This document shows positions 44,334-52,592 of a DNA stretch of 64,000 nt, in pieces; position 1 is the first letter of the stretch; the number at the start of each line of letters is the position of its first letter. Source of the stretch: Escherichia phage vB_Eco_BCPEco_001; the sequence record PV295200.1; one strand, given 5' to 3'. A program made the translations under genes and the position numbers. The notes beneath the pieces are model-generated. The model had not been told where the DNA came from. It searched no databases and saw nothing but the letters and a program-made list of their open reading frames with translations.

Positions 44334-45160
<827 letters not shown>

Positions 45161-45180
45161 AATAACGCGTGGCGGAAAAT

Positions 45181-45528
45181 ATGAATTTTAATTATTACCC
45201 TATTCTATTAGAAAAAGACGTGAAACAACCTAAATGGCAGGGTCCTCAGTTTATTAAAGGTGTCTATCAATTAGTAGTTCCTAAAGACAAGATTTATAGC
45301 AGTTGTTTCACTGAATCTGCTTGCAGTATTTTCGGTAATAGTTCTCCGTATTGGAATTTTGACATAAAGCTGGATAGAAATATCGATATTTGGTTGAAAG
45401 CTATGGATATTGGTAATATTACGTTTGATGAGAATAATTATCATATTATTGGTCGCTTTTCCAAACGCGGTAAAGAATTGTATTTCACGCCTGAAATTGA
45501 AAGAAAATTTGATGCTAAACCGTATTGA
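45181..45528 (+). CDS. Hypothetical protein (115 aa) encoded on an insertion between frd and td
   Basis: ORF between genes that I recall as overlapping in T4; flanked by AAATGAAA direct repeats. Confidence 0.45.
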   Translation: MNFNYYPILLEKDVKQPKWQGPQFIKGVYQLVVPKDKIYSSCFTESACSIFGNSSPYWNFDIKLDRNIDIWLKAMDIGNITFDENNYHIIGRFSKRGKELYFTPEIERKFDAKPY

Positions 45529-45573: not shown

Positions 45574-46122
45574 ATGAAACAATACCAATTTTTAATTAAA
45601 GATATCCTGGAAAATGGCTACGAAACCGATGACCGAACAGGCACAGGAACAATTGCTTTGTTCGGTACTAAATTACGCTGGGATTTAACTAAAGGTTTTC
45701 CTGCAGTAACAACTAAGAAGCTCGCCTGGAAAGCTTGCATTGCTGAGCTAATATGGTTTTTATCGGGAAGCACAAATGTCAATGATTTACGATTAATTCA
45801 GCATGATTCGTTAATCCAAGGCAAAACAGTCTGGGATGAAAATTACGAAAATCAAGCAAAAGATTTAGGATACCATAGCGGTGAACTTGGTCCAATTTAT
45901 GGAAAACAATGGCGCGATTTTGGCGGTGTAGACCAAATTATAGAAGTTGTTGATCGTATTAAAAAATTGCCAAATGATAGACGTCAAATTGTTTCAGCAT
46001 GGAATCCAGCTGAACTCAAGCAGATGGCATTACCGCCTTGTCATATGTTCTATCAGTTTAATGTGCGTAATGGCTATTTGGATTTGCAGTGGTATCAACG
46101 ATCAGTAGATGTTTTCTTGGGT
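45574..46122 (+). CDS. td: Thymidylate synthase, exon 1
   Basis: 183 codons ending ...DVFLG, then the conserved td intron 5' sequence begins. Confidence 0.9.
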
Positions 46123-46225
46123 TAATTGAGGCCTGAGTATAAGGTGACTTATACTTGTAATCTATCTAAACGGGGAACCTCTCTAGTAGACAATCCCGTG
46201 CTAAATTGTAGGACTGCCCTTTAAT

Positions 46226-46253
46226 AAATACTTCTATATTTAAAGAGGTATTT
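46226..46253 (+). promoter_or_regulatory. RBS-sequestering hairpin upstream of I-TevI with late-promoter-like AATAAATA inside
   Basis: AAATACTTCT pairs with AGAGGTATTT (10 bp, one G-U), covering SD AGAGG. Confidence 0.65.
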
Positions 46254-46991
46254 ATGAAAAGCGGAATTTATCAGATTAAAAATACTTTAAACAATAAAGT
46301 ATATGTAGGAAGTGCTAAAGATTTTGAAAAGAGATGGAAGAGGCATTTTAAAGATTTAGAAAAAGGATGCCATTCTTCTATAAAGCTTCAGAGGTCTTTT
46401 AACAAACATGGTAATGTGTTTGAATGTTCTATTTTGGAAGAAATTCCATATGAGAAAGATTTGATTATTGAACGAGAAAATTTTTGGATTAAAGAGCTTA
46501 ATTCTAAAATTAATGGATACAATATTGCTGATGCAACGTTTGGTGATACATGTTCTACGCATCCATTAAAAGAAGAAATTATTAAGAAACGTTCTGAAAC
46601 TGTTAAAGCTAAGATGCTTAAACTTGGACCTGATGGTCGGAAAGCTCTTTACAGTAAACCCGGAAGTAAAAACGGGCGTTGGAATCCAGAAACCCATAAG
46701 TTTTGTAAGTGCGGTGTTCGCATACAAACTTCTGCTTATACTTGTAGTAAATGCAGAAATCGTTCAGGTGAAAATAATTCATTCTTTAATCATAAGCATT
46801 CAGACATAACTAAATCTAAAATATCAGAAAAGATGAAAGGTAAAAAGCCTAGTAATATTAAAAAGATTTCATGTGATGGGGTTATTTTTGATTGTGCAGC
46901 AGATGCAGCTAGACATTTTAAAATTTCGTCTGGATTAGTTACTTATCGTGTAAAATCTGATAAATGGAATTGGTTCTACATAAATGCCTAA
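46254..46991 (+). CDS. I-TevI: Homing endonuclease I-TevI (GIY-YIG)
   Basis: 245 aa; GIY (IYQIKN) ... YVG motif; Zn finger and C-terminal DNA-binding domain. Confidence 0.92.
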   Translation: MKSGIYQIKNTLNNKVYVGSAKDFEKRWKRHFKDLEKGCHSSIKLQRSFNKHGNVFECSILEEIPYEKDLIIERENFWIKELNSKINGYNIADATFGDTCSTHPLKEEIIKKRSETVKAKMLKLGPDGRKALYSKPGSKNGRWNPETHKFCKCGVRIQTSAYTCSKCRNRSGENNSFFNHKHSDITKSKISEKMKGKKPSNIKKISCDGVIFDCAADAARHFKISSGLVTYRVKSDKWNWFYINA

Positions 46992-47138
46992 CGACTATCC
47001 CTTTGGGGAGTAGGGTCAAGTGACTCGAAACGATAGACAACTTGCTTTAACAAGTTGGAGATATAGTCTGATCTGCATGGTGACATGCAGCTGGATATAA
47101 TTCCGGGGTAAGATTAACGACCTTATCTGAACATAATG

Positions 47139-47450
47139 CTACCATTTAATATTGCATCATATGCTACGTTAGTTCATATTGTAGCTAAGATGTGTAATCT
47201 TATTCCAGGAGATTTGATATTTTCTGGTGGTAATACTCATATCTATATGAATCACGTAGAACAGTGTAAAGAAATTTTGAGGCGTGAACCTAAAGAGCTT
47301 TGTGAGCTGGTAATAAGTGGTCTACCTTATAAATTCCGATATCTTTCTACTAAAGAACAATTAAAATATGTTCTTAAACTTAGGCCTAAAGATTTCGTTC
47401 TTAACAACTATGTATCTCACCCGCCAATTAAAGGAAAGATGGCGGTATAA
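47139..47450 (+). CDS. td: Thymidylate synthase, exon 2
   Basis: In-frame continuation LPFNIASYATLVHIV...; total 286 aa. Confidence 0.9.
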   Translation, partial: LPFNIASYATLVHIVAKMCNLIPGDLIFSGGNTHIYMNHVEQCKEILRREPKELCELVISGLPYKFRYLSTKEQLKYVLKLRPKDFVLNNYVSHPPIKGKMAV

Positions 47451-47737: not shown

Positions 47738-48017
47738 ATATAAATCCGACTTTGATGTTAATATTCACCGTGGTACATTTTGGGGAAATTACGTCGGTAA
47801 AGATGCTGGCAGCCGGGAGGCTGCCATTGAATTATTCAAAAAAGATTTTATACGTCGAATTAAATCCGGAGAAATAACTAAAGCACATTTAGAGCCTTTA
47901 CGTGGAATGAGGCTAGGATGCACATGTAAACCAAAGCCGTGTCATGGTGATATAATAGCTCATATAGTTAACCGACTGTTTAAAGACGATTTTCAAGTTG
48001 AGGACTTATGCAATTAA
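47691..48017 (+). CDS. DUF4326-like protein (108 aa), nrdA.2 position
   Basis: Motif [12 protein letters not shown] resembling DUF4326 as I remember it. Confidence 0.5.
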
Positions 48018-50272
48018 TTAATGTTATCAAAAGTAGTGGTGTTTCTCAGAGCTTTGACCCGCAAAAAATTATTAAAGTTTTATCTTGGGCAGCTGAAGGA
48101 ACATCAGTAGATCCTTATGAATTATATGAAAATATTAAATCTTATCTCCGTGATGGAATGACAACTGATGATATTCAGACTATTGTCATTAAGGCCGCTG
48201 CGAATTCTATTTCGGTTGAAGAGCCTGATTATCAATATGTAGCTGCACGCTGTTTAATGTTCGCTCTTCGTAAGCATGTTTATGGGCAGTATGAACCACG
48301 TTCATTTATTGACCATATTTCTTACTGTGTAAATGAAGGTAAATACGACCCTGAATTGTTGTCAAAATATTCAGCAGAAGAAATTACATTTTTAGAATCA
48401 AAAATTAAGCACGAGCGGGATATGGAATTTACTTATTCCGGGGCGATGCAATTAAAAGAAAAATATCTAGTTAAAGATAAAACCACTGGTCAAATTTATG
48501 AAACTCCACAGTTTGCATTTATGACTATTGGAATGGCATTGCATCAAGATGAACCTGTTGATAGATTAAAACATGTTATTCGTTTTTATGAAGCAGTATC
48601 TACTCGACAGATTTCATTGCCAACTCCTATTATGGCTGGTTGTCGTACTCCAACTCGACAGTTTAGTTCATGCGTTGTTATTGAGGCAGGTGATTCATTA
48701 AAGTCTATCAATAAGGCTTCTGCTTCAATTGTTGAGTATATCTCCAAACGCGCTGGAATTGGTATTAACGTTGGTATGATTCGTGCCGAAGGTTCTAAGA
48801 TTGGCATGGGTGAAGTACGTCATACTGGTGTTATTCCTTTTTGGAAACATTTTCAGACTGCAGTTAAATCATGTTCACAGGGTGGAATTCGTGGCGGCGC
48901 TGCTACTGCTTATTATCCTATTTGGCATTTGGAAGTTGAAAATCTTCTCGTTTTGAAAAATAACAAAGGCGTAGAAGAAAACCGCATTCGTCATATGGAT
49001 TATGGCGTTCAACTGAATGATTTGATGATGGAACGTTTTGGAAAGAACGATTACATTACTTTGTTCAGTCCGCATGAAATGGGTGGCGAGCTTTATTATT
49101 CTTATTTTAAAGACCAAGACCGTTTCCGTGAATTATACGAAGCAGCAGAAAAAGACCCTAATATTCGTAAAAAGCGTATTAAAGCCCGTGAACTATTTGA
49201 ATTGCTCATGACTGAACGTTCAGGAACAGCAAGGATTTATGTACAGTTCATTGATAATACGAATAACTATACTCCGTTTATTCGTGAAAAGGCACCTATT
49301 CGTCAGAGTAACTTGTGCTGTGAAATTGCTATTCCAACAAATGATGTGAATAGTCCTGATGCTGAAATTGGATTGTGTACTCTCTCTGCATTCGTACTAG
49401 ATAATTTTGACTGGCAAGACCAAGATAAAATTAATGAATTGGCAGAAGTTCAAGTTCGTGCTCTTGATAATCTTTTGGATTACCAAGGATATCCAGTTCC
49501 TGAAGCAGAAAAAGCTAAAAAGCGTCGTAACCTCGGTGTAGGTGTTACAAACTATGCAGCTTGGCTGGCAAGTAACTTTGCTTCTTATGAAGATGCCAAC
49601 GATTTAACACATGAACTATTTGAGAGATTACAGTATGGACTCATTAAAGCATCCATTAAGCTCGCCAAAGAAAAAGGACCTTGCGAATATTATTCAGACA
49701 CTCGTTGGTCTCGAGGCGAATTACCTATCGACTGGTACAATAAAAAGATTGACCAAATCGCAGCTCCAAAATACGTTTGTGACTGGTCGTCGCTGCGGGA
49801 AGACCTTAAGCTCTTTGGCATCCGTAATAGCACATTATCAGCACTTATGCCATGTGAGTCATCTTCCCAAGTTTCTAACAGTACAAACGGTATCGAGCCT
49901 CCACGTGGACCAGTCTCTGTTAAAGAATCAAAAGAGGGCTCCTTTAATCAAGTCGTGCCCAATATTGAGCATAACATAGACCTTTACGACTATACATGGA
50001 AATTAGCTAAGAAAGGTAATAAACCTTATCTTACGCAGGTAGCTATTATGCTGAAATGGGTATGTCAATCAGCTTCAGCGAATACATACTATGACCCGCA
50101 GATTTTTCCAAAAGGAAAGGTTCCAATGTCAATAATGATTGATGACCTTTTGTATTTCTGGTATTTTGGCGGAAAAAATTTCTATTATCATAATACCCGT
50201 GATGGTTCTGGTACTGATGATTATGAAATAGAAACTCCAAAAGCTGAAGATTGTTCATCCTGTAAATTATGA
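48008..50272 (+). CDS. nrdA: Aerobic ribonucleotide reductase large subunit
   Basis: 754 aa; ATP-cone N-terminus; class Ia catalytic motifs. Confidence 0.95.
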   Translation: MQLINVIKSSGVSQSFDPQKIIKVLSWAAEGTSVDPYELYENIKSYLRDGMTTDDIQTIVIKAAANSISVEEPDYQYVAARCLMFALRKHVYGQYEPRSFIDHISYCVNEGKYDPELLSKYSAEEITFLESKIKHERDMEFTYSGAMQLKEKYLVKDKTTGQIYETPQFAFMTIGMALHQDEPVDRLKHVIRFYEAVSTRQISLPTPIMAGCRTPTRQFSSCVVIEAGDSLKSINKASASIVEYISKRAGIGINVGMIRAEGSKIGMGEVRHTGVIPFWKHFQTAVKSCSQGGIRGGAATAYYPIWHLEVENLLVLKNNKGVEENRIRHMDYGVQLNDLMMERFGKNDYITLFSPHEMGGELYYSYFKDQDRFRELYEAAEKDPNIRKKRIKARELFELLMTERSGTARIYVQFIDNTNNYTPFIREKAPIRQSNLCCEIAIPTNDVNSPDAEIGLCTLSAFVLDNFDWQDQDKINELAEVQVRALDNLLDYQGYPVPEAEKAKKRRNLGVGVTNYAAWLASNFASYEDANDLTHELFERLQYGLIKASIKLAKEKGPCEYYSDTRWSRGELPIDWYNKKIDQIAAPKYVCDWSSLREDLKLFGIRNSTLSALMPCESSSQVSNSTNGIEPPRGPVSVKESKEGSFNQVVPNIEHNIDLYDYTWKLAKKGNKPYLTQVAIMLKWVCQSASANTYYDPQIFPKGKVPMSIMIDDLLYFWYFGGKNFYYHNTRDGSGTDDYEIETPKAEDCSSCKL

Positions 50273-50323
50273 TATAATTTGACTCATGGACGAGTCACTA
50301 TCTATTAACTAAGTGGAAAATTT

Positions 50324-50999
50324 ATGAGCACAGTTTTTAATACAAACCCAGTTGATGTTTTAAAAGAACCTATGTTTTTTGGTTCAGGTCTTGGTATTGC
50401 GCGTTATGATATTCAACGGCATCGAGTATTTGAAGAACTTACTGAGAAATCTTTATCATTTTTCTGGCGTCCTGAAGAAGTAAACTTAATGATGGATGCT
50501 GCGCAATTTAATAAGCTTCCTCAATATCAGCAAAATATTTTTACTAACAACCTGAAGTATCAATCACTTTTGGATAGCATTCAGGGTCGTGCACCTTCTG
50601 CTGTACTTATGTCATTAATTTCAGACCCGAGTCTTGATACATGGGTTGCTACATGGACTTTTAGTGAAACTATTCACAGCCGTTCATATACACATATCAT
50701 GCGAAATCTTTATACTGATCCGTCAAAGGTATTTGATGAGATTGTATTAGATGAAGCTATTATGAAACGTGCTGAATCCATTGGACGCTATTATGATGAC
50801 GTTCTGATTAAAACCCGTGAATGGGAAAATGCTAAAGAATTTGTAGAACTAGCTAAAGAATCTCCTGATGCTGTCTTTCGTTTAAACCGAGCTATTAAAC
50901 AAGAAGCCGAAGCTAAACGTGCTTTAATGAAATCTCTTTACCTCTGTTTGCACGTTATTAATGCCTTAGAAGCAATTCGTTTTTATGTATCTTTTGCGT
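50324..50999 (+). CDS. nrdB: Ribonucleotide reductase small subunit, exon 1
   Basis: Ends ...EAIRFYVSFA plus first base of a Cys codon. Confidence 0.85.
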
Positions 51000-51109
51000 A
51001 AAATGCGCCTTTAAACGGTAACGTTTATCGAAAACTCCTTTAATTGCTGGAAAGTCCTTTATAGGAAAACTAGCAGCCAAGGTTTTGCTTGCACCTTTAA
51101 TTAGTATAA

Positions 51110-51117
51110 TATAAATA
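51110..51117 (+). promoter_or_regulatory. Late-promoter motif TATAAATA upstream of I-TevIII
   Basis: Exact TATAAATA about 28 nt upstream of intron ORF start. Confidence 0.5.
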
Positions 51118-51144
51118 TGATTATACTTTTAAGAGGATGCACAA

Positions 51145-51954
51145 TTGAACTATAGAAAAATTTGGATAGATGCTAACGGACCTATACCTAAAGATTCTGA
51201 TGGAAGAACATACGAAATCCATCATAAAGACGGTAACCGTGAAAATAATGATTTAGATAATTTGATGTGCCTTTCTATACAGGAACATTATGATATACAT
51301 TTAGCTCAAAAAGATTACCAGGCTTGTCATGCTATAAAGCTTAGAATGAAATATTCTCCTGAAGAAATTTCTGAATTAGCTTCTAAAGCCGCAAAATCTA
51401 GAGAAATCCAGATTTTTAATATCCCTGAAGTACGAGCTAAAAATATTGCCTCTATTAAATCTAAGATAGAAAATGGTACATTTCATCTTTTAGATGGTGA
51501 AATACAGCGTAAATCTAATTTAAATAGAGCTGCATTAGGTATACATAATTTTCAACAAGCTGAGCATATTGCAAAAGTTAAAGAACGCAATATTGCAGCT
51601 ATAAAAGAAGGTACTCATGTATTTTGCGGTGGTAAAATGCAGTCAGAAACTCAATCAAAACGGGTAAATGACGGTTCACATCATTTCTTATCAGAAGACC
51701 ATAAGAAAAGAACATCAGCAAAAACATTAGAAATGGTTAAGAACGGGACCCATCCTGCACAAAAAGAAATCACATGTGATTTCTGTGGTCACATTGGTAA
51801 AGGTCCTGGATTTTATCTAAAACATAATGACAGATGTAAATTAAATCCAAATAGAATTCAATTGAATTGTCCATATTGTGATAAGAAAGATTTATCACCA
51901 TCAACATATAAACGATGGCACGGCGACAATTGCAAAACAAGGTTCAACGACTAG
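51145..51954 (+). CDS. I-TevIII: HNH homing endonuclease I-TevIII, apparently intact (269 aa, TTG start)
   Basis: HNH motif EIHHKDGNRENNDLDNLMCLSIQEH; C-terminal Zn finger; SD AAGAGGA before TTG. Confidence 0.8.
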   Translation: MNYRKIWIDANGPIPKDSDGRTYEIHHKDGNRENNDLDNLMCLSIQEHYDIHLAQKDYQACHAIKLRMKYSPEEISELASKAAKSREIQIFNIPEVRAKNIASIKSKIENGTFHLLDGEIQRKSNLNRAALGIHNFQQAEHIAKVKERNIAAIKEGTHVFCGGKMQSETQSKRVNDGSHHFLSEDHKKRTSAKTLEMVKNGTHPAQKEITCDFCGHIGKGPGFYLKHNDRCKLNPNRIQLNCPYCDKKDLSPSTYKRWHGDNCKTRFND

Positions 51955-52089
51955 TCTTCGGACGTAGGGTCAAGCGACTCGAAATGGGGAGAATCCCTCC
52001 GGGATTGTGATATAGTCTGGACTGCATGGTAACATGCAGCAGTTCATAAGAGAACGGGTTGAGAATTAGCGAGCTCAATCGAACATACG

Positions 52090-52592
52090 GTACCTTTAAC
52101 TTCCATAAGAATATGGAAATTATGGAAGGTAATGCAAAGATTATGAAGTTCATTGCACGTGATGAGCAGCTTCATCTTAAAGGCACCCAATATATTATTC
52201 GTCAGCTTCAATCCGGTACTGATGGCGATGAATGGGTTAAAATTGCTCAAGAGTGTGAACAAGAAGCAGTTGATATTTTCATGGAAGTTAACCGCCAAGA
52301 AAAAGATTGGGCAGTTCATTTATTTAAAGATGGAGATGTTCCTGGATTAAATACAAATAGCATGTGGAGCTTTATTGATTACTTAACTGTATCTCGTATG
52401 AAGCAGTGTGGTCTTCCATGCCCAATTACCGATGCTCCGGTTAAACATCCATATCCTTGGATTCGTGAATATCTTAATTCTGATAATGTTCAATCTGCGC
52501 CACAAGAAGTAGAATTGTCATCTTACCTTGTTGCACAGATTGATAATGATGTTGATGATAAAGTTATGATGAGTTTTAAAAAATACTTTTAA
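52090..52592 (+). CDS. nrdB: Ribonucleotide reductase small subunit, exon 2
   Basis: Continues (C)TFNFHKNMEIMEGNAKIM...; spliced product about 392 aa. Confidence 0.85.

Follow-up and report, generated by a model that had tools for sequence, protein, structure and literature searches.

What is the insert of 1090 nt that interrupts nrdB in Escherichia phage vB_Eco_BCPEco_001, and does its apparently intact endonuclease gene set it apart from the introns found at the same site in other T4-like phages? We addressed this question in a 64,000-nt stretch of the phage genome (PV295200.1; hereafter the window), which belongs to a Tequatrovirus and shares 99.4% identity with Salmonella phage vB_Sen_BCPSen_003 over 24 kb. 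The region is almost certainly a full-length, RB3-type mobile group I intron of Tequatrovirus nrdB, the gene for the small subunit of the aerobic ribonucleotide reductase. Its anatomy, its boundaries, the intact motifs, the conservation of RNA structure, the hairpin and the promoter box are established for the window itself.

Locus and intron boundaries

Around 48-54 kb, the genes are ordered nrdA, nrdB exon 1, the 1090-nt insert, nrdB exon 2, denA and rnlA. Exon 1 corresponds to features annotated as nrdB in RB3 and SHFML-11, nrdA was taken from the open reading frames of the window, and the limits of the intron and of exon 2 were set by comparison with an intronless allele:

48008-50272, + strand: nrdA
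50324-50999, + strand: nrdB exon 1 (225 codons plus the first base of a Cys codon)
51000-52089, + strand: group I (IA-type) intron, 1090 nt
52090-52592, + strand: nrdB exon 2, stop codon included

The gap between nrdA and nrdB is 51 nt, and the gene content of the window includes no mobE between them. Both RB3 and T4, in contrast, carry mobE at this position, and T4 has nrdB.1 upstream of nrdB as well.

An earlier note on this DNA had described a 1090-nt nrdB group I intron at 51000-52089 and had placed its splice junctions by protein conservation. The coordinates prove right, and the junctions are matched exactly by the intronless nrdB of phage a48, which is contiguous precisely across 50999|52090. 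Exon 1 ends in T50999 and the intron in G52089 (omega-G); with 50999 joined to 52090, NrdB reads through as 392 open codons (...FYVSFA-C-TFNFHKNMEIMEGNAKI...), and the differing bases on either side of each boundary leave no room to shift it. Guanosine-dependent self-splicing is known for the T4 nrdB intron, and the ribozyme sequence of the window intron is that of T4. By extension from the RB3 and T4 experiments, the intron would excise itself at U50999|A51000 and G52089|G52090, with restoration of the NrdB frame.

Ribozyme fold

A scan of the whole window against Rfam at gathering thresholds returned no match, and on RF00028 the window reaches 35.6 bits, under the gathering score of 50. This low score arises because the 0.8-kb ORF splits the intron core, and not because a ribozyme is absent. 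PD112, a natural derivative whose ORF was lost by deletion between two ACAATTG repeats while the flanking core stayed the same, scores 68.6 bits on this model. We therefore drew helices P1, P2, P3, P4, P5, P6, P6a, P7, P7.1, P7.2, P8, P9, P9.1 and P9.2 by hand on the ORF-less cores of the window, RB3, T4, S16 and HY03. The resulting model places the helices as follows; the extent of the 5' half also draws on the Rfam alignment of the ORF-less derivative, and that of the 3' half on Rfam matches:

51005-51088, + strand: ribozyme 5' half
51005-08, + strand: P1 3' strand/internal guide sequence, pairing with exon bases 50996-99
51013-17/51022-26, + strand: P2
51035-40, + strand: P3 5' strand
51045-50/51070-75, + strand: P4
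51055-58/51063-66, + strand: P5
51077-78, + strand: P6 5' strand
51083-88, + strand: P6a 5' strand
51932-52078, + strand: ribozyme 3' half
51932-37, + strand: P6a 3' strand
51941-42, + strand: P6 3' strand
51949-53, + strand: P7 5' strand
51954-56/51961-63, + strand: P7.1
51967-71/51976-80, + strand: P7.2
51986-91, + strand: P3 3' strand
51993-97/52001-05, + strand: P8
52013-17, + strand: P7 3' strand
52022-28/52033-39, + strand: P9
52042-45/52052-55, + strand: P9.1
52059-63/52074-78, + strand: P9.2

All 67 pairs of the P1-P9.2 model are standard in five of five variants, whereas slid controls of the model are only 34-47% paired. Compensatory double changes occur at four pairs (two in P2, one in P5 and one in P9), a covariation signal that is supporting and no independent proof, since the sample is five sequences and the structure was drawn from those same five. 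P1 (GCGU/GCGC) is invariant in the five variants and includes the U·G wobble between T50999 and G51005. The P7.1/P7.2 hairpins (51954-63, with a UUCG loop, and 51967-80) are fully paired at the position typical of subgroup IA, but are invariant and so without covariation; the T4 record labels its own nrdB intron group 1A. Together these features suggest that the intron RNA would fold as a group IA ribozyme with helices P1-P9.2, a P3/P7 pseudoknot and P7.1/P7.2. The I-TevIII ORF is an insert in the P6a loop, and its last ~8 codons and stop overlap the P6a 3' strand, the P6 3' strand, J6/7 and the P7 5' strand.

An intact I-TevIII endonuclease

The reading frame carried by the intron has the same CDS limits as I-TevIII of RB3 and encodes a protein with an HNH region and two matches to the zinc-finger pattern CX2CX12-13HX3C:

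51145-51954, + strand: I-TevIII ORF, TTG start, 269 aa, 30.86 kDa
51220-51288, + strand: HNH region, residues 26-48
51775-51837, + strand: zinc finger 1, residues 211-231
51868-51933, + strand: zinc finger 2, residues 242-263

The frame is uninterrupted over 269 codons plus stop. Mutagenesis of the RB3 enzyme found H26, H27, N39 and H48 to be needed for catalysis and cysteines C211/C214 and C242/C245 to be needed for zinc and DNA binding (Robbins et al. 2007, PMC1865063); all of these are kept in the window protein. The predicted mass of 30.86 kDa compares with a published 30.8 kDa (PMC1865063), and the residue numbering, counted from the TTG, agrees as well. Identification of the ORF as an apparently intact 269-aa I-TevIII in the earlier note is thereby upheld; of its single C-terminal zinc finger, the presence stands but the number does not, as there are two (211-231 and 242-263).

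Profile searches point the same way, with a Pfam HNH_3 match that begins at residue 4 (48.7 bits against a cut-off of 24.8, E = 6e-13) and a match to PHROG 12324, 'intron-like DNA endonuclease', that covers residues 1-269 of 269 (E = 5.6e-193). A sequence search of the PDB returned no solved relative (best E = 0.48, spurious). Separately, a Pfam FlgM match to residues 74-114 (26.6 bits against a cut-off of 25) was set aside as marginal, since it probably reflects a fortuitous resemblance between helices.

Homology to the RB3 enzyme predicts that the window I-TevIII binds intronless nrdB as a dimer across the insertion site and cleaves it 14 and 16 bp upstream to yield 2-nt 3' overhangs. Recombinational repair would then copy the intron into the cut intronless allele. 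Both cleavage and homing are here extrapolated from the literature on RB3 and T4.

A conserved TTG start

The earlier note had held that TTG is the only in-frame initiator behind a good Shine-Dalgarno sequence, and we reach the same view. An in-frame TAA lies at 51130-32, five codons upstream of the TTG, which is the only canonical start before codon 40/41. Initiation at those later codons, inside the HNH motif, would lose half of it, and the HNH_3 match already begins at residue 4, so that TTG is the only sensible initiator. It is preceded by:

51131-51137, + strand: Shine-Dalgarno AAGAGGA, unchanged across seven intron variants; 8 nt separate its GAGG core from the TTG

Neither the AUG at 51137 nor the out-of-frame AUG at 51117 is a usable start, as each meets a stop codon within 3-12 codons. 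The start annotated for the 97-aa 'I-TevIII' of T4 was likewise discounted as start-codon evidence; it is an out-of-frame ATG, meaningful only after the frameshifting deletion of T4.

The TTG, which the earlier note singled out, is not peculiar to this copy. It is invariant in RB3, T4, S16, HY03, FL44 and PD112; across seven intron variants neither it nor the Shine-Dalgarno sequence changes, although one of the seven is the 89%-identical copy of Gelderlandvirus S16, a member of another genus, and the first substitution 3' of the TTG among the variants is synonymous. The same TTG opens the I-TevIII CDS in the 1991 GenBank record of RB3 (Eddy & Gold, X59078.1). A review of the T4 intron endonucleases uses the generic wording 'AUG initiation codon' for all three (PMC2988022), and our full-text literature search found no paper that explicitly discusses the UUG start of the nrdB intron, its only match being irrelevant.

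That translation should begin elsewhere than at TTG 51145, whether at the ATT of codon 6, at the ATA of codon 8 or by coupling to a minicistron, seems scarcely credible. UUG is admittedly a rare and weak initiator, and a minicistron, ATG CAC AAT TGA (51137-51148), lies close by, with its AUG 8 nt upstream and its TGA overlapping the TTG by two bases. However, that AUG abuts the Shine-Dalgarno core with no spacer and so is poorly placed, while the TTG stands at the ideal distance of 8 nt from GAGG, and coupling would initiate at this same TTG anyway. The upstream stop and the start of the HNH_3 match confine the initiator to 51133-51156, where TTG is the sole canonical candidate, and the active recombinant RB3 protein fits a 269-aa product in both residue numbering and mass. 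On the strength of the RB3 and T4 experiments, the window copy too would be initiated at TTG 51145.

Probable layered control of expression

Three further elements crowd the region in front of the ORF:

51110-51117, + strand: T4 late-promoter box TATAAATA, inside the intron and upstream of the ORF
51081-51151, + strand: hairpin hiding the ribosome-binding site, from RNA folding
51082-51100, + strand: operator-like homing-site copy GTTTTGCTTGCACCTTTAA, a 16/19 match to exon-junction positions -9..+10

The late-promoter motif reported just upstream of the ORF in the earlier note is thus present, as TATAAATA; it is kept in the ORF-intact introns of S16 and HY03, and in the ORF-defective introns of FL44 and PD112 it is missing or damaged. 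In the hairpin, 51090-51098 forms an inner stem with the Shine-Dalgarno region (51132-51136 and 51138-51141), and 51081-51085 forms an outer one with 51147-51151 that takes in the G of the UUG codon. An 81-nt segment around the Shine-Dalgarno sequence has a folding energy of -17.9 kcal/mol (z = -4.0), a stability reached by 0 of 200 shuffles, whereas the leader beginning at 51122, on the 3' side of the late promoter, has no significant structure (z = +0.27). Because TATAAATA sits in the apical part of the hairpin, an RNA that starts just downstream of it lacks the 5' arm. The operator-like match is attained by only 1 of 2000 shuffles, and the site overlaps a MotA-box-like TTTGCTTGC (51084-51092) that is followed 12 bp later by TATAAT (51105-51110); to judge from sequence alone, TTTGCTTGC and TATAAT may constitute a middle promoter.

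For all three intron endonucleases of T4, the literature describes control by a late promoter combined with a hairpin that occludes the ribosome-binding site, and it proposes operator sites resembling the homing site, for I-TevIII as well (Edgell, Gibb & Belfort 2010, PMC2988022). The late promoter, hairpin and candidate operator of the window match this regulatory model (PMC2988022). The tightly limited expression that the earlier note proposed would, by the same analogy, hold for this copy; the TTG, the late promoter and restricted expression are all published features (X59078.1; PMC2988022; PMC1865063). The main published brake is the hairpin over the Shine-Dalgarno sequence, which that note does not mention.

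Carried over from RB3 and T4, expression in the window would be held in check at several levels. The weak UUG would hold back endonuclease synthesis, and in the long early/middle nrdB pre-mRNA the hairpin would lock the Shine-Dalgarno sequence, along with the G of the UUG, into base pairs, whereas the shorter transcripts of the late promoter, without the 5' arm, would make the ribosome-binding site accessible, and this only late in infection. With ribosomes kept away from the pre-mRNA, splicing would be protected too, because the 3' end of the ORF overlaps P6a-P7. Autorepression through the operator-like homing-site copy that overlaps the promoter region would be possible in addition.

The undeleted form of the T4 intron and the decay of the element

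The intron of T4 (NC_000866) is 598 nt long and encodes a defective I-TevIII, and over these 598 nt it has 0 mismatches to the window. It shares the ribozyme, the promoter, the Shine-Dalgarno sequence, the TTG and the coding part of the C-terminal zinc finger, and it lacks 491 nt and one A in the L5 loop; these deletions remove the HNH domain and shift the reading frame. RB3 differs from T4 at seven positions and an indel. As every shared position is identical and only the two T4 deletions separate the introns, that of the window is precisely the T4 intron in undeleted form. The contrast drawn in the earlier note, between a truncated T4 copy and full-length versions in relatives, is confirmed by the T4 and RB3 introns. 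The 491-nt deletion of T4 lies between two imperfect 10-nt direct repeats, located by alignment of the intron variants:

51203-51212, + strand: imperfect direct repeat GAAGAACATA, copy 1
51694-51703, + strand: imperfect direct repeat GAAGACCATA, copy 2

The FL44-type deletion arose between these repeats too, but it retains the opposite one of the two, which implies an independent event.

Across phage genomes, 190 records match the intron, 84 of them at full length, and an uninterrupted full-length I-TevIII was found by tblastn in 87 records. The remaining matches carry the T4-type deletion, the second deletion type (FL44, LH2) or the ORF-less type (PD112, BYEP01), and many T4-like phages are intronless at nrdB. 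With full-length copies in at least 84-87 records, an intact I-TevIII is ordinary among sequenced T4-like phages.

These observations bear on a further alternative, that the ORF is intact on paper while the copy is non-mobile or decaying, its nuclease inactive or unmade, or its persistence owed to vertical descent or homing in trans. Decay is clearly frequent, as the T4-type 491-nt deletion, the FL44-type deletion and the ORF-less PD112 type attest; even the RB3 enzyme is weak and labile (PMC1865063), and MobE-driven trans-homing has been shown for T4 (PMC2790892). We nonetheless judge this alternative very improbable. All catalytic and zinc-binding residues of the window protein are intact, as are the promoter box, Shine-Dalgarno sequence and TTG, while defective copies have lost the TATAAATA box. 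The uninterrupted ORF in 87 records, among them a copy diverged at the genus level with 88% protein identity, argues for selection on the protein. Since mobE is absent from this phage, trans-homing by MobE is no explanation for the persistence of the intron. An intact and mobile element remains the preferred reading.

Divergence from RB3 at residue 23

In a megablast against phage genomes, three phages, Shigella phage SHFML-11 among them, match positions 50900-52200 at 100% identity, and RB3, where the corresponding features are annotated as nrdB (joined exons) and I-TevIII, matches at 98.5%. RB3 and the window share the nrdB host gene, the insertion site and the location of the ORF in the P6a loop, along with the 269-codon ORF, TTG, Shine-Dalgarno sequence, late promoter and hairpin. 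Their introns are 99% identical in DNA sequence, separated by 11 substitutions and one indel (1091 nt in the current RB3 genome against 1090), and the proteins, which are identical at catalytic and zinc-finger residues, differ without gaps at 3 of 269 positions (99% identity): Tyr23 in the window against Asp23 in RB3, an Ala against a Val, and a Thr against an Ala.

Residue 23 lies three positions before the catalytic His26/His27. The 31-mer with the Tyr-type codon 23 occurs in 65 records, and S16, HY03 and a free-standing homologue with 36% identity share the Tyr as well, while Asp23 is limited to RB3 and the sibling isolates RB5, RB6, RB7, RB9 and RB10. On these comparisons, Tyr23 appears to be the common, family-wide allele and Asp23 an atypical one specific to the RB3 clade. 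The RB3 enzyme has been described as weak and labile (PMC1865063), being 1,000-10,000-fold less active than I-TevI and poor at homing. It is conceivable, though in our estimation unlikely, that the window carries the progenitor allele of the T4 intron with the natural wild-type I-TevIII, and that Asp23 could explain the weakness of the RB3 enzyme. If this were true, the Tyr23 enzyme would be a much better endonuclease and the picture of I-TevIII as intrinsically feeble would need revision.

Significance

The full-length form, its TTG start and its regulation are already known, having been described between 1988 and 2007 and deposited in GenBank. The novelty that the earlier note implied for an intact I-TevIII was accordingly over-rated, given 87 phage records and features that are published (X59078.1; PMC2988022; PMC1865063). 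The nrdB intron is a textbook mobile group I intron with multilayered control of a potentially toxic selfish nuclease, and the present copy has little importance beyond correct annotation; in many deposited genomes, the closest relatives of this phage included, nrdB is annotated as two genes and the endonuclease as a hypothetical protein. Of mild value are the undeleted allele of the T4 intron, the atypical Asp23 of RB3, and the repeated decay of the element by deletion between the same short direct repeats.

Comparison with other known systems

The two other intron-endonuclease cassettes of T4, td/I-TevI and nrdD/I-TevII, resemble that of the window in pairing a group IA intron with an endonuclease ORF looped out of the core, and share with it an internal late promoter and a ribosome-binding-site hairpin, to which the putative operator, a homing-site copy over the promoter, may be added (PMC2988022). 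Autorepression has been shown only for I-TevI (PMC2988022). The enzymes themselves are of different kinds, as I-TevI and I-TevII are GIY-YIG monomers whereas I-TevIII is an HNH dimer. A more distant relative is the 'I-TevIII-like' protein of Salmonella phage STP4-a (AHJ87014.1), which at 36% identity retains the N-terminal HNH and the shared motif GR(T/S)Y.IHH..GN..NN...NL. It is about 200 aa long and has a single CX2C...H...C zinc finger against two in the window I-TevIII, and its gene is free-standing between prohead core genes with no intron, whereas the I-TevIII of the window is encoded within one.

Results

Decay of the I-TevIII ORF in the nrdB intron occurs by deletion between short direct repeats, two pairs of which are present in the window:

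51203-51212 and 51694-51703: direct repeat GAAGAACATA/GAAGACCATA
51141-51147 and 51926-51932: direct repeat ACAATTG/ACAATTG

The first pair gives rise to the T4-type deletion and also, as an independent event, to the FL44-type; the second accounts for the ORF-less 304-nt intron found in phages PD112 and BYEP01. At the start of the I-TevIII ORF, immediately 3' of the Shine-Dalgarno core, lies a three-codon minicistron (ATG CAC AAT TGA, 51137-51148), the TGA of which shares two bases with the TTG start codon; the minicistron was unchanged in all seven intron variants compared.

Within the encoded HNH endonuclease, codon 23 (51211-51213) specifies tyrosine in the window and in 65 phage records, with Asp23 restricted to RB3, RB5, RB6, RB7, RB9 and RB10. 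Tyrosine is also retained in the free-standing homologue of Salmonella phage STP4-a, which is 36% identical to I-TevIII. The central region (residues ~105-210, 51470-51770) contains about five repeats, some 22-24 aa in length, which end in G(T/S/I)H.F or NGTF at residues 110, 132, 156, 177 and 201 and which may represent the 'beads on a string' DNA-binding modules. Separately, residues 74-114 (51364-51486) gave a marginal match to the Pfam FlgM family (26.6 bits against a cut-off of 25).

The thymidylate synthase gene, td, is likewise interrupted (45574-47450):

45574: start of td exon 1
46254-46991: I-TevI ORF (GIY-YIG, 245 aa, sequence MKSGIYQIKNTLNNKVYVGSAKDFEKRW...)
47450: end of td exon 2

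Since td is split and carries the I-TevI ORF inside, the td intron is therefore also present in vB_Eco_BCPEco_001. It was not called by the Rfam scan at the gathering threshold, presumably because the ORF divides its core, as is the case for the nrdB intron. Upstream, between frd (44579-45160) and td (45574), is a 119-aa ORF with a GTG start (MAENMNFNYYPILLEKDVKQ..., 45169-45528); in T4, frd and td adjoin directly.

Over 50-80 nt, the 3' core of the nrdB intron (J8/7-P7-P9 region, 52009-52087) is 84-96% identical to unannotated stretches in unrelated phages that infect Pectobacterium, Klebsiella, Vibrio, Aeromonas and Pseudomonas; these stretches probably represent group I introns that are related to it but lie in different genes. 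Among the closest GenBank records, nrdB is often given as two genes (nrdB_1/nrdB_2), and in many deposited genomes I-TevIII is labelled 'hypothetical protein'; both practices extend to 100%-identical genomes and are a problem of annotation rather than of biology.

Discussion

In T4 and RB3, the position between nrdA and nrdB is occupied by mobE, a free-standing HNH endonuclease gene, whereas in the window these genes are separated by 51 nt (50273-50323), a gap from which both mobE and T4 nrdB.1 are missing. Without mobE, the nrdB intron here cannot rely on trans-homing by MobE. The biochemically characterised I-TevIII, that of RB3, bears the unusual allele at residue 23 (Asp23).

Compared with T4, the window intron (51000-52089) shows no mismatches: relative to the window, the T4 intron lacks only a single A (position 64 of the intron, in the L5 loop) and a stretch of 491 nt, whereas the RB3 intron, published as the 'wild version', departs from that of T4 at seven sites and by an indel. 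The 1090 nt quoted for RB3 is 1091 nt in its current genome; the 5' strand of P8 reads CC in the 1991 RB3 record (X59078.1, 1040-1050) and CCC in the 2014 genome (KM606994) and all other variants. The 1090 nt of the window has a different origin from that of RB3, with CCC kept and one A fewer ahead of the 3' splice site.
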